From Eledone cirrhosa (lineage: Eukaryota), in the NCBI GenBank assembly GCA_964016885.1, contig OZ024742.1, positions 71,796,001-71,860,000 of the forward strand: 64,000 bases of DNA, in the 5' to 3' direction. A program made the position numbers and the translations under genes. The notes under the pieces were generated by a model. The model did no database searches. It was not told the origin of the DNA and was given only the letters and a program-made list of their open reading frames with translations. Below, piece by piece: positions 16,560 to 29,345 of this stretch; the stretch's first letter is position 1, and each line of letters opens with the position of its first letter.

Positions 16560-19145
16560 ATTGGACTGGAGTATATATAAGAAGATTCAGCGCAACTGAC
16601 GGACTTGGTTGGAATCTTCATTTTGAACTCTTTAAATCGGAAAATTCCTCAACTTCGCGGTGGAATCTATCGTGACGATGCCCTTTTTACTGTCTTACAC
16701 TGTAACATAGTAAACCTTATATTATCAAGAATAATATACTTGATCTATTTAAGCACCTTAACCTAAAAATTGAATTTGAGAACAACGTTAAATTATCTAA
16801 CTTCCTAGATATATCCCTTAATCTAGACACCGGACTATATTACCCATACCATAAGGATAATGAAAACCTAAATTATGTAAATTTGAAATCAAACCACCCT
16901 ATTAATGTTAAAACTGCTATAGTCAGAAATGTTGAAAAAAGAATTTCTAATCTATCTTCTAATAAACTTATCTTTGACGCTAAAGTCAATTATTACAATA
17001 ATGCGCTATCCAGAGCTGGTTATCCAGACAGAATTAAATACACTAATGAAACCAATCATGGCTGAACTTATAGTAATATAGCTAGTTATAAGCATTCCAA
17101 TAACATAAAGAGGAGACCTAGATATAAAAATATTATTTGGTACAACACTCCTTTTTCTTTTTCTATTATTAGTAATATTCCTAAATTATTTTTTAGGGCT
17201 TAGATAAGTGCTTCCCTCCTTCACATATTTATAGTAAGATCTTTAATAAGCATACAATTAAATTCTCTTATTCCACCACTTCCAACATTTCTAACATTAT
17301 CTCAAAACATAATACTAAAATATTAAATAATAACTCATATTCATCCAACCCTTAGCGTCATAGTAATAACACTATAAGGCCCGACGTCAATGTAAACTCT
17401 AGACATAAATATAAATACGACGTCAAACGTAATTTCGATGAATGCTCCTAGACAAGATAACTTAATATAAATACGACGTCAAACGTAATTTCGATGAATG
17501 CTCCTAATAATAATCTAAATCAGGAAACATTAGCACCTCCTTTAGTTAATTTCTCCACTACATTTCCTTCTATAAATAATTCTGGGTCACTTGCAAATAA
17601 CTCTGTTAATAACACTAATCGTAAATGCAATTGCCCTAATAGAACTAAATGTCCTCTTAATAATTACTGTCTCGATAAAAATTTAGTATACGAATGTAAG
17701 GTGATAACTAGTACCAATTCTTATACCTACATTGGCTCTACTTCTACTTCCTTTAAGGCAAGATTATATAACCATTCTTCGTCTTTTAAATACCCACTTA
17801 AAAGAACAAACACTGCACTCTCAGAACTCACCTAGTCCTTAAAAGACAAAAACATTAATTACAAAATTTCTTGGCGTAAAATATGCAATGCTTCTCCATA
17901 TTCCAACGCTTCCATATCTAGAACTTGTAATTTATGTCTAGCGGAAAAATTTACCATTATCTCTAATTTTAACTCTATAATAAATAGACGCACAGATTTA
18001 TTTTCGCTTTGCATCCATAAATCGCTTAGGTCATTTCACGAAGTATACAGCTAATATCTTACTCCATAATTAAAATTAAAAACTTTTTCTCACACATATA
18101 TATCTTTTTCTCACATATACCCCTTTTTTCTCGCATATTTCAGTACATTCTACAATTTTCATTCATACTATGACGTTTTTGGTCCACTCATTTTTTAATT
18201 CACTATAGCAAACTCCTTTATCTTCTTGGGGATACAATTTTTTTTTTTTATTGTTCATCTTTATATCATTTCTTCTCAATATTACTTTTTCTTAAGCCGC
18301 TATATTTCCCAATTTTTTACTTCAAATCTATTAATATTAACATTAAGTGAATTTTGTAAACAAAGTTTGACGTCATTTTTTCTTCCTCGTTTTTTTCTTT
18401 TTTCTTCTCTCTTTCCGTGCTTGTCTTTGCTTAAATAATTACTTTTTCACAGAAACACCTTTTCAATTACAATCTATTTAAACAAACTAGGACCCTATAT
18501 CGTCTTCTAAGCTTATAAATCATTTAATTTTATTTTTATTCACCTTATCTTATTTTACTTTATTTTATCTTAATAATACATTTTAATAAAACTTTTTCGC
18601 ACATCTTAAATAAATCCTTCAGTATATAAACCCTAAATAAATAGTATACTTAATTTCTATATCTGTAATCATAAACATCTTCAATCATAAACCTCATCAA
18701 TTTTTAATTATTTAATTTATTTATAAATTTACAACCGTTTTTTTTCAGTTATTTTTCAGTGGAGACAGCGTTTTTCAGTTTAAATGTTTCTCTCTCTCTC
18801 TCTCTCTCTCTCTCTCTCTCTCTCTCTCTCTCTCTCTCTCTCTCTCTCTCTCTCTCTTATACTCTTCCTCCGTTATCCTTTCCTTCTTTTTCCCTTTCTT
18901 CCTCTTCCTTCCTTTTTTCCCCTTCCTTCCCTTTTTTCAAATCTTATATATCCTTTTAAATTTATTTATCATATGTTAATTAGTCACTACCTTGTTCACA
19001 AGTGTTTTTTTAAAGCATCATATGATGTATCCCTATTTTTTTTATCTGATGAGAACGCAAATATCGTCCTAGGATGATATTTGTTTTTGAAATGCGCAAA
19101 ATAAAATACATGGAACTTTTTTAACCATCTTTTAATTTCTTCTTA
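16560..19145 (+). mobile_element. Penelope-like element (Naiad-like), 5'-truncated and degenerate
   Basis: Translates SAQLTDLVGIFIL...GGIYRDD (RT), SNHP thumb, CNC..CPL..C and VYECKV...YIGST...FKAR (GIY-YIG). Long pyrimidine-rich 3' UTR ends in a hammerhead-like motif and TA. Confidence 0.85.
19041..19105 (+). ncRNA. Degenerate hammerhead ribozyme in the PLE 3' end
   Basis: tttat-CTGATGA-long stem II (gcaaatatcgtcc/ggatgatatttgt)-GAAA-TGCGCA palindrome-aa-ataaa; the U expected before the cleavage site is A. Confidence 0.55.
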
Positions 19146-19152
19146 TATATAC

Positions 19153-19925
19153 AAAAACAAATAACGAAACGAAATTAAATTTCGTTTCGTTTGTAACTCA
19201 CTTTTGTATGACTGACGCTTAAACAATTAAGTTAAAAATGTACATCCACATATGTATACTGAAATACTAGTATGCATATGAATACACACACGTGTACATA
19301 TGTAGATGTACCGAGTTTTTCACTGGACACTTTACTGTGAGTGTCCAGCTATTCTGTATGTAAACACACAGACAAACCGGTTTTTAGAGTCATACTGGTT
19401 TTCGAGGAAACACCTTTCCTCTATTCTCCAGAAAGCCAGACAGGAATATTGGACTAGTTTCGATGTTGTTACATCTCATCAGCAATATTTACCTATCTTC
19501 CGGCCTTTCTAGAGAATCGTAAAAGCACATATGGTTATATGCTTTTTCTATGAAAATTAGTAGTGGGCAGACTAATTTGCATAGAGCGTGAGTACGTACC
19601 GGTTCAGCGGAGACGATAAAAACAAATAACGAAACGAAATTAAATTTCGTTTCGTTTGTAACTCACTTTTGTATGACTGACGCTTAAACAATTAAGTTAA
19701 AAAATGTACATCCACATATGTATACTGAAATACTAGTATGCATATGAATACACACACGTGTACATATGTAGATGTACCGAGTTTTTCACTGGATACTTTA
19801 CTGTGAGTGTCCAGCTATTCTGTATGTAAACACACAGACAAACCGGTTTTTAGAGTCATACTGGTTTTCGAGGAAACACCTTTCCTCTATTCTCCAGAAA
19901 GCCAGACAGGAATATTGGACTAGTT
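19153..19925 (-). mobile_element. Retrozyme-like tandem repeat, family A (465-nt unit, ~1.7 copies)
   Basis: Unit starts at 19153 and 19618; contains a canonical hammerhead; flanked by (TA)n. Confidence 0.8.
19445..19489 (-). ncRNA. Type I minimal hammerhead ribozyme
   Basis: Minus strand: AATATTG CTGATGA GATGT aaca ACATC GAAA CTAG TC CAATATT. 7-bp stem I, 5-bp stem II, palindromic ACTAGT stem III, GUC cleavage triplet. Confidence 0.92.
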
Positions 19926-28400: not shown

Positions 28401-29229
28401 CAGATTTCATTTATTGCTTTCAGTAGGTTATCTTTCAGGAACTCCCACTGTTCTCTATATCGTATGTCTCTATTTGCTCTTCCTTACTGTTGAAGGTCAA
28501 TCAACATACTTCTAAATTTGTTACTTGTTGATGGGTCTTTTAACTTCCAGCTTGTCTTCTGCTGCCAGGTTCTTCTAGCCCTGACTATAAGTTCCCTAAT
28601 ACTAAGTTATGTTGGGAGATGCATTCTTCACTAAGGAGAGACTTTGTGTTCACAAGATTCACTCTGTCTCAACTTCTGGTAAGAATGAAATCTATCTGGC
28701 TGGCATGCTCACCCTATCTATAGGTGATTAAGTGGTTGTTTCATTTTTTGAAGTTTGTAATACATAAGGGTGTATGCTTTCATATACACCCCAATTATGC
28801 TTAAACCTATCTTAGTACTACTGCCAATTAATTATAACCTGGTAAGTTTACACTATATATCCAGCTGATATTTTCTATTTGTTATATGAAAACGAGCATC
28901 TGCAGTAAATGTTCATCATGTAAGATCTATATAGACTCTTGTCTATTTTCATCTCAGTACCAGTTGAGAGATTAATGAATCTTGAAACATCTGTCTAGCA
29001 TTCTTCTCAATGGCTATGGAGATATCTGTAAATATGAGCAAAAGAGAGAAAAATAATTTTTTCATAACGAATGCTTAACACTATTTTAGTGCTACTGCCA
29101 ATATATATATATATAAACAAATGAAAAAGATATATGTATATATAGAAAGAGAAAGAACCATATATTGTATATATACCAAATATACATATTCCATAGAAGA
29201 ATATGTACACTGGTGGAATCATTAGAGAG

Positions 29230-29345
29230 ACCTTATAGCGCTATTTCAATTGATCATTGAAGAAATCAATCAATATAATCGATCATCGAAGACAAACTAT
29301 CAATTATAATTAAATCACAAGAGACTCGGAATACTCATCAGAGGT
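29230..29345 (-). ncRNA. Hammerhead-like motif with long stem II insert
   Basis: Minus strand: ACCT CTGATGA (~87 nt) GAAA TAGCGCTA TA AGGT; lies in a ~350-bp segment between TA-rich tracts. Confidence 0.6.

Follow-up and report, generated by a model that had tools for sequence, protein, structure and literature searches.

Retrozymes without long terminal repeats (non-LTR retrozymes) of Metazoa consist of non-coding tandem units of a few hundred nucleotides with one type I hammerhead ribozyme each; they occur dispersed in thousands of copies, ranging from single units to long multimers, have a stable predicted fold and share their genomes with Penelope-like elements (PLEs) (Cervera and de la Pena 2020, PMC7229834; review PMC7761336; Li, Clavereau and Pollet, bioRxiv 10.64898/2026.07.22.740005). 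Their mobiliser has hitherto been argued from co-occurrence, shared ribozymes and homology to the pseudo-LTRs (pLTRs) of PLEs (Li et al. preprint; PMC7229834, PMC7761336), and the accessible text of the review describes the retrozyme repeats as being without a motif that indicates it. Here we analysed a 64-kb stretch of the Eledone cirrhosa genome (contig OZ024742.1, positions 71,796,001 to 71,860,000; in the following, the window), in which positions 19041..29345 hold a cluster of such repeats, families A, B, B', C and D, next to a PLE copy of family E. We propose that A-D are non-LTR retrozymes inserted by a PLE protein with reverse transcriptase (RT) and GIY-YIG domains from ribozyme-spanning RNA, probably circles, and assign this chain of events as a whole a probability of roughly 55%. 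The retrozyme class and the PLE hypothesis are already published and the families themselves are ordinary members of that class; the insertion footprint is a useful addition.

All the traits named above recur in A-D, at a GC content of 31-39%. Circles and cleavage have been demonstrated in coral, mussel and axolotl, and are predictions for the families described here. At 465-600 nt, units are longer than the 150-450 bp given in PMC7229834 but fit the 51-972 bp of the Li et al. preprint, which covers 31 vertebrates, 3 insects and 1 anthozoan. (Statements on PMC7229834, PMC7761336, PMC6962438, PMC8557442, PMC11167929 and PMC4209133 refer throughout to the accessible portion of each paper.) Fixed dual 3' ends and inverted arms with and without a tail, as found here, are not described in the accessible text of the three retrozyme papers. 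In mostly open-access literature, supplements aside, we found no description of cephalopod retrozyme families or of the tail signature in retrozymes: the words 'octopus' and 'cephalopod' have 0 occurrences in the accessible text of PMC7229834, and that of the giant squid genome paper (PMC6962438) counts 235 Rfam hammerhead-1 hits with no analysis of them.

With PLEs, namely the Hydra clade (PMC8557442) and Poseidon PAc (PMC11167929), A-D share the inverted 5'-truncated arm, the tail at one end, the (TA)n target and a hammerhead upstream of the RT starts. The Hydra-clade marks DKT and CxCX5C occur in family E (CxCX5C in the window copy) and in the intact open reading frames (ORFs) of the genome. 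A-D, in contrast, code for no protein, have tails of ~30-117 nt versus the 30-40 bp quoted for PLEs, and show no sequence link to any PLE examined. Non-autonomous Chlamys elements such as MRC1 (PMC8557442) are likewise PLE passengers, with pLTRs and multicopy head-to-tail insertions; their 3' ends generally resemble those of autonomous partners and most are without canonical hammerheads, whereas A-D have hammerheads and no homology to a partner was seen. The hammerheads of the Schistosoma PLE Cercyon (PMC4209133) are alike in their short stem I, dimer-suited palindromic stem III, U3-A8 variant and opposite-strand motif pairs 100-700 bp apart. Those motifs were interpreted as truncated PLEs; B' instead forms its own ~320-nt tandem unit, and the stem II inserts of C and D are much longer than in Cercyon.

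Hammerhead-bearing repeat families in the window

The window was searched within the 3.0-Gb assembly, and its sequence was read closely over 18000-29999 and 15900-18100; q positions are coordinates within a family's own repeat unit, and L numbers our handles for loci. A strict type I pattern, run over both strands of the whole window, recovered 4 intact cores, all inside 19041..29345: one of A (19482-19452, minus strand) and three of C (22461-22390 and 22991-22920, minus; 23469-23540, plus). The same scan gave a three-mismatch match at 26473-26509 (plus). When a similarly strict pattern included a palindromic stem III, 4 window matches compared with 2 in 200 dinucleotide shuffles (12.8 Mb); Rfam at its gathering threshold returned zero matches in the window. 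The stem III palindromes ACTAGT, ACTAATTAGT, ACAGAGCTCTGT and ATAGCGCTAT are all present, as is the near-palindromic ACAGACTGT of B. A preliminary description of this stretch, which had claimed several non-coding hammerhead families with palindromic stem III, is borne out, with the corrections given below.

The repeat units measure 465 nt (A), 315 nt (B), ~319-323 nt (B'), 529 nt (C) and ~600 nt (D), and self-BLAST revealed tandem and inverted pieces of A, B, B' and C; of the sizes first proposed, 465 and 315 held and 530 became 529. Across the unit, B resembles B' at ~80%; all other pairs of A, B, C, D and E stayed at E 0.04 or worse, in keeping with the initial impression that only the B pair shares sequence. 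The units are short, low in GC (0.31-0.39) and free of protein, with longest ATG frames of 32-85 codons, and tblastn with four PLE proteins matched nothing in them.

Genome-wide, first-look candidates (lower bounds, with 40 scored for each family) number at least 797 for A, 2,806 for C, 2,651 for B, 3,020 for B', 283 for D and 1,630 for E. Exact core patterns matched 9,378 times for A and 654 times for B', versus 0 for reversed controls, and each repeat unit has a type I core. The expectation that the units are multicopy was therefore confirmed, and their organisation is tandem, dispersed and high-copy as in non-LTR retrozymes, less clearly so for D. Arrays reach 32 units in A and at least 11 in C (L237), where 1-1.5 units per arm are usual; B and B' mostly have 1-2 units, and in D a single partial tandem was seen. 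Many D hits on contig C24 (L072-L083) lie in segmental repeats of ~13-16 kb and are therefore not independent insertions.

Two further observations concern the families at large. Family D contains a 66-nt internal minisatellite, expanded ~11 times in L088 (1702-2433). A further hammerhead family has the ACTAGT stem III of A with different stems (L061, at 493 and 911, spacing 418 nt; L089, 2740; L096, 2475; L123, 53-194; L172, 2914-3055) and is weakly similar to A (73-78% over short stretches, L172).

The candidate sum corresponds to an expected density of ~0.04 per 10 kb (a figure based on floors, in which B and B' may overlap), compared with six elements in the 10-kb cluster; the clustering is therefore real. 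As 13 of the window's 22 (TA)5+ tracts fall at 19.9-29.6 kb, we infer that the cluster reflects common TA targeting plus nesting.

Insertions carry the terminal signature of Penelope-like elements

To avoid score bias, loci were sampled by position. For A, we took the insertions to which the first 100 core matches belong (initial 31 Mb of contig C1) plus 1 extra found there via the tail pattern, and for C the 39 distinct loci that came first among 349 pattern matches; arm positions were transcribed by hand. Among 45 A arms, 43 have their 3' end at q463-465 (24) or q393-399 (19). Likewise, 56 of the 61 scored C arms end at q112-117 (30) or q524-529 (26), one further arm having left the fetched stretch. 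(TA)n follows most of these 3' ends, and the 5' ends are scattered. When two arms lie head to head, a tail-bearing arm was combined with a tail-less one in 16 of 18 A insertions (same-type 0, irregular 2; binomial p ~2e-5) and in 18 of 21 C insertions (same-type 1, irregular 2; binomial p ~4e-5), counting as tail-less one C arm that ends at q521. An equal layout was found in B, B', D and the autonomous-type E, here in score-ranked loci. That is, A and C insertions bear a tail at one end, bounded by two fixed internal 3' ends, together with an inverted 5'-truncated arm and a (TA)n target.

Inverted 5'-truncated copies, a tail at one end and TA targets have been reported for PLEs by Craig et al. 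(bioRxiv 2021.04.23.441226 / PMC8557442). In vitro, Frangieh et al. (PMC11167929) traced the tail to the stretch between two internal RT starts, a signature described as unique to PLEs, and found that both target strands are cut and extended. The copies analysed here end with this published signature, and PLE mobilisation, already suspected in the preliminary description, is therefore well supported; taking their ends and targets together with the intact Hydra-type ORFs of the same genome (see below), we consider it very probable for these retrozyme families.

In the position-based samples, 0 of 27 A insertions and 0 of 39 C loci run on into a PLE ORF at the 5' end; an ORF with RT and GIY-YIG is thus continuous with none of the sampled A and C copies (B, B' and D were looked at in score-ranked loci), and PLE fragments in the flanks of sampled insertions are separate from the arms. 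The objection that the units could be merely 3' ends of full PLEs consequently fails for A and C; it is true for the motif at 19046. These results support the idea of several independent non-autonomous families, and the view of A-D as high-copy non-coding hammerhead families that are moved by PLE machinery, more strongly than the preliminary description could.

Search tables suggested array ends at q416 (A) and q50 (B, C), but these were rejected as artefacts of a 50-base window, the flanks giving the true ends. Some A and B arms (L153, L058, L061) end in (CAT)n, not (TA)n.

Candidate donors of the machinery

DKT and CxCX5C are Hydra-clade marks according to Craig et al. (bioRxiv 2021.04.23.441226 / PMC8557442), and the clade was assigned here by these two motifs, not by a tree. 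The window copy of E is 5'-truncated before DKT and has CxCX5C. Its translation is 59-89% identical to an intact-start relative (L158/L184), in which a ribozyme, tail, 5' untranslated region (UTR), ATG and 728-aa frame are followed by a second ribozyme 3,334 nt on, and in which all Hydra-clade marks occur (DKT, CxCX5C, C-terminal GIY-YIG, hammerhead and TA target).

A distant Hydra-like query gave 85,310 candidates; 62 scored matches have open frames of 709-920 aa, a few of them with one stop. DKT was present in 4/4 and CxCX5C in 3/4 of the Hydra-type proteins checked, the fourth ending early. Three PLE families among 30 loci are 49-55% identical to one another and 37-41% to the E relative, and some Hydra-type ORFs form head-to-tail tandems of 3.5 kb. 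Many intact, near-identical Hydra-type ORFs of at least four families were noticed (L185-L214, e.g. C2:320549381-320558586 and C1:437200468-437213178); in its accessible text, PMC8557442 lists a small number of Hydra families. Hammerhead-like motifs also lie upstream of PLE ORFs: L201 has a canonical core (+1306) before the ATG, and L190, by eye, a variant-like core with a long palindromic stem III. A putatively Neptune-like frame, judged by a motif, is in the genome as well.

Two apparent links between A and PLEs were discarded. For a tail motif common to A and E by eye, an equal score was reached in 63 and 94 of 300 shuffles, and none of the tail comparisons between families was significant. 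A could further have been the pLTR of the PLE in L158, but that PLE has its own ribozyme and A sits in the adjacent TA.

Ribozyme constraint and RNA template

A variable pair of stem II is kept in 100/100 of the first listed A cores (67 A-U, 33 U-A); many of these cores come from a few arrays, and the arrays are not independent. Among the first 100 of 654 B' cores, TTGATAA occurs 99 times, TTGATGA once and CTGATGA never. Where B' has U3-A8, the core of B reads C3-G8, and its stem II differs but is likewise paired; U3-A8 covariation has been reported for Schistosoma PLE ribozymes (PMC4209133). These compensatory changes of core and stem II across subfamilies suggest that catalysis matters to spreading. 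Folds of whole units against shuffles gave z -10.5 for A, -7.2 for B (copy L053) and -3.7 for C, i.e. a stable self-paired structure is predicted for all three, as for non-LTR retrozymes.

The 3' ends are found 60-300 nt further downstream than the predicted cut (q166/167 in A, q469/470 in C), and a whole core was present in 26 of 27 A insertions (either pattern, first 31 Mb of C1; short fragments without both patterns are missed). The template was therefore presumably not a cut linear monomer, but a circle or an uncut multimer. One A insertion has 20 identical units across both arms, with 0.9% difference to its nearest sampled neighbour, and other A insertions have array-wide private variants in both arms; a homogeneous parent array would also give such patterns. 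Variants of period 2 and period 3 (L164, L159/160, L108, L110) were rejected as proof of a dimer circle: they are mostly in one arm and fit later duplication. 5' ends within q165-169, at the predicted cut, were found in 0/45 A arms. Of 62 C arms, 4 have their 5' end within q468-472 (local p 0.065, uniform p 0.003), as does a short window piece at 22267; because short arms are over-represented there, this pile-up is a hint at most.

In run X4, a 495-letter contig closes on itself over the whole A unit (window 19153-19617) with 9 substitutions and 2 gaps. Two of its variants are absent from run X1, and it may represent a circle or a tandem array, or DNA carried over from a relative. Over 26225-31450, the same run gave simple-sequence matches alone, with no cover of B' or other repeats, and proves nothing.

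Anatomy of the cluster

The cluster starts with E. Its body (16584..19151, plus strand) is a 5'-truncated, broken Hydra-type PLE that keeps the C-terminal part of the RT, the CxCX5C linker, a GIY-YIG-like region and the 3' UTR, and has a tail-less 3' end in TA. An inverted tail arm of ~67 nt precedes it (16518..16585, minus) and corresponds to the stretch found after the TA end of further E copies (L130, L131, L137, L141-L143, L146, L147). The type I hammerhead of its pLTR (19046..19100, plus; palindrome ATGCGCAT in other copies) lies at the start of the range first described, outside the 465-nt unit, and is the 3' ribozyme of this PLE. It has an A at U16.1 (19099), where 13/13 other E loci have T, 3 of these carrying other stem III changes.

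An A arm of 1.66 units (19153..19925, minus; q159-465 plus q1-465), with its tail-type 3' end at 19153, is inserted in the TA end of E. Its intact type I core (19452..19482, minus; fold z -3.8) has a stem I of 7 bp, a stem II of 5 bp, ACTAGT and a predicted cut after 19452. At the 5' junction of A, a 52-nt duplication (19899..20003) runs into (TA)n; 8 letters within it may be an inverted tail-less end, i.e. a mini second arm comparable to those in L157 and L165. The two longest TA tracts (19991-20140 and 21183-21273) flank a neighbour outside the ribozyme families, a Tc1/mariner transposase fragment (20141..21182, minus) with an open frame of 268 aa (20371-21177) that matches Sleeping Beauty transposase (E 6.7e-7, PDB). 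Pfam returned 0 families for the mariner frame and for three PLE frames; the identity of both elements is based on motifs, homologues carrying PF26215, and the PDB match.

B follows as an inverted arm with its 3' end cut short (21520..21833, minus; hammerhead 21563-21530 with weakened stem I) and an arm of 1.1 units with a tail-less 3' end in (TA)n (21835..22189, plus; hammerhead 22015-22048 with broken stem II). Nearly all units abut (TA)n, as first stated, the exceptions being this B minus arm, which meets non-TA sequence at 21520, and the tail end of A, with a short TA remnant only. A dispersed repeat (21289-21518, 78% alike to 42698-42926) abuts the B minus arm and may have truncated it.

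C comprises the short piece mentioned above (22267..22323, plus), whose 5' end is at the predicted ribozyme cut (q469/470), an arm with a tail-less 3' end (22330..23112, minus) and its inverted partner (23104..23717, plus; hammerhead 23469-23540), in which a 117-nt tail is followed by (TA)n. Both hammerheads of the minus arm (22461-22390 and 22991-22920) have a 51-nt stem II region, ACTAATTAGT and a predicted cut after UU. B' consists of an arm with a tail-type 3' end in (TA)n and the 3' half of the ribozyme only (26221..26418, minus) and an arm with a tail-less end (26416..26640, plus), whose hammerhead (26473-26509) has the U3-A8 core TTGATAA and AAAA in place of GAAA (26494). The older, decayed family D was found as an arm (29113..29502, minus; hammerhead 29341-29234 with a long stem II insert) and an inverted tail arm ending in TA (29503..29567, plus); a motif at 29230 that had been taken for solitary thus sits inside a two-armed insertion (29113-29567). 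In this copy the 3' strand of stem II is deleted, whereas other D copies pair stem II round an insert of ~100-130 nt.

We use the usual hammerhead numbering and the effects generally expected of changes at G12 and U16.1. The window hammerheads of E, B (plus), B' (plus) and D are predicted to be inactive because of the A at U16.1, the broken stem II, AAAA and the lost stem II strand, respectively.

Outside the cluster, 84-nt tandem arrays occur at 6051-7445, 30325-31411, 46651-47465 and 63274-63895 of the window. The one stretch that was translated (30563-31222) encodes C2H2 zinc fingers, and the ribozyme cluster sits between such genes. A fragment of a long interspersed nuclear element (13525-16355, plus), with frames of 713 and 248 aa that are endonuclease- and RT-like by eye, lies directly before the inverted tail of the PLE.

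Discussion

We picture the spread of these families as follows. A tandem copy would be transcribed and its minimal hammerheads would cut, likely as dimers via the palindromic stem III, whereupon host ligation would close monomer or multimer circles, by analogy with coral, mussel and axolotl. Next, a PLE protein, possibly from the Hydra clade, which targets TA and abounds in this genome, would introduce nicks in the two strands of a (TA)n tract and prime one complementary DNA (cDNA) at each of two internal starts, spaced 67-72 nt in A, 117 in C and ~30 in B; that the two 3' ends represent RT starts is suggested by the in vitro results for PLEs (PMC11167929). Joining of both cDNAs head to head at short microhomologies would give the architecture that we observed, a tail-bearing plus a tail-less arm, and arrays would later lengthen by local duplication, as observed for several. 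A 10-kb cluster could arise because each element targets TA tracts and leaves them behind. In its most specific form, which extends to animal retrozymes in general, a Hydra-clade PLE protein would nick both (TA)n strands, prime two cDNAs at two fixed internal sites of a single circular RNA and travel round this circle as many as a dozen or more times; this version we put forward only tentatively, as a possibility rather than an expectation.

A number of observations weigh against a course through cleaved and circular RNA, or against the link to a particular PLE. Two-sided changes affect just 5 of 149 predicted pairs (17 A units), and whole-unit covariation in A is therefore modest; in C, stem II is mismatched (A.A) at its base and the site is UU. 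Among 30 PLE loci plus one E-like element, a very small sample of the 85,310 candidates, no PLE shares sequence with A-D, the sole match of a PLE locus to the units being a weak one of 51 nt to B (E 5e-4). Blocks were duplicated after insertion in L159/160, L164, L108 and L110, so array length alone is no proof of rolling-circle copying. In the study by Li et al. (10.64898/2026.07.22.740005), 8/9 Xenopus dimers failed to cleave, and Frangieh et al. (PMC11167929) found cleavage unnecessary in vitro, with unprocessed RNA as the main substrate and no reads ending at the ribozyme cut. The latter findings would suit a template of uncut linear RNA, read through from an existing tandem array, by which the same families would be mobilised by PLEs with no circles as intermediates and with the ribozyme as pLTR inheritance or serving a side function. 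The failure of A 5' ends to gather at the cut points the same way, and so do ordered variants common to both arms: in L119 two variants appear solely in the unit nearest the 3' end of either arm, and L113 has G,A,G at the start of both arms, counted from the 3' end. Gene conversion, or a template of several unequal units, would fit these patterns, and a monomer circle would not; multimeric circles, however, explain them too. Moreover, most B and C insertions have 1-1.5 units per arm, so that few could supply long multimers, and the compensated changes of core and stem II suggest a role of catalysis in spreading. We thus regard read-through as conceivable, but lean against it.

Two other explanations do without retrozymes as such. 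The units might be solo pLTR debris of as yet undiscovered autonomous PLEs, amplified later as minisatellites by unequal crossing over. This holds for the motif at 19046, local duplication was observed, only 30 of the 85,310 candidate PLE loci were examined, and 24/57 Xenopus retrozyme families are homologous to Repbase transposable elements, mostly PLE pLTRs (Li et al.). But dispersed A and C insertions are all unit, in both arms and with unit-to-unit junctions, and, as reported above, none of those sampled leads into a PLE ORF, which makes debris improbable; descent of the families from pLTRs may nevertheless have occurred and is compatible with the retrozyme reading. Head-to-tail arrays of up to 32 units, block duplications and a strong hairpin just before the tail end of A could also be expected of repeats that spread at the DNA level, as satellites via extrachromosomal DNA circles or in a Helitron-like way, with ribozyme-like motifs as passengers. 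Such repeats do not account for arms that are inverted head to head, end at two fixed 3' sites, are truncated variably at the 5' end and strictly pair tail with tail-less, a layout shared by the RT-encoding element E, nor for the compensated catalytic core. The end statistics largely refute this explanation, which we rate as very improbable.

For non-LTR retrozymes inserted by a PLE protein, the preferred reading, the case goes beyond the indirect arguments used for animal retrozymes so far: the insertions themselves bear the tail signature that biochemistry links to PLE reverse transcription. The mobiliser question is thereby turned into a defined assay, with the young family A, mapped candidate RT starts and intact candidate enzymes in the same genome, and whether the template is circular or linear is now clearly testable. 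If two cDNAs are indeed primed on one circular RNA, the strict pairing of arms and the 20 identical units of one insertion would directly record, in the genome, that a telomerase-like RT had copied RNA by rolling-circle reverse transcription, and they would supply exact start sites as well as candidate enzymes for reconstitution.

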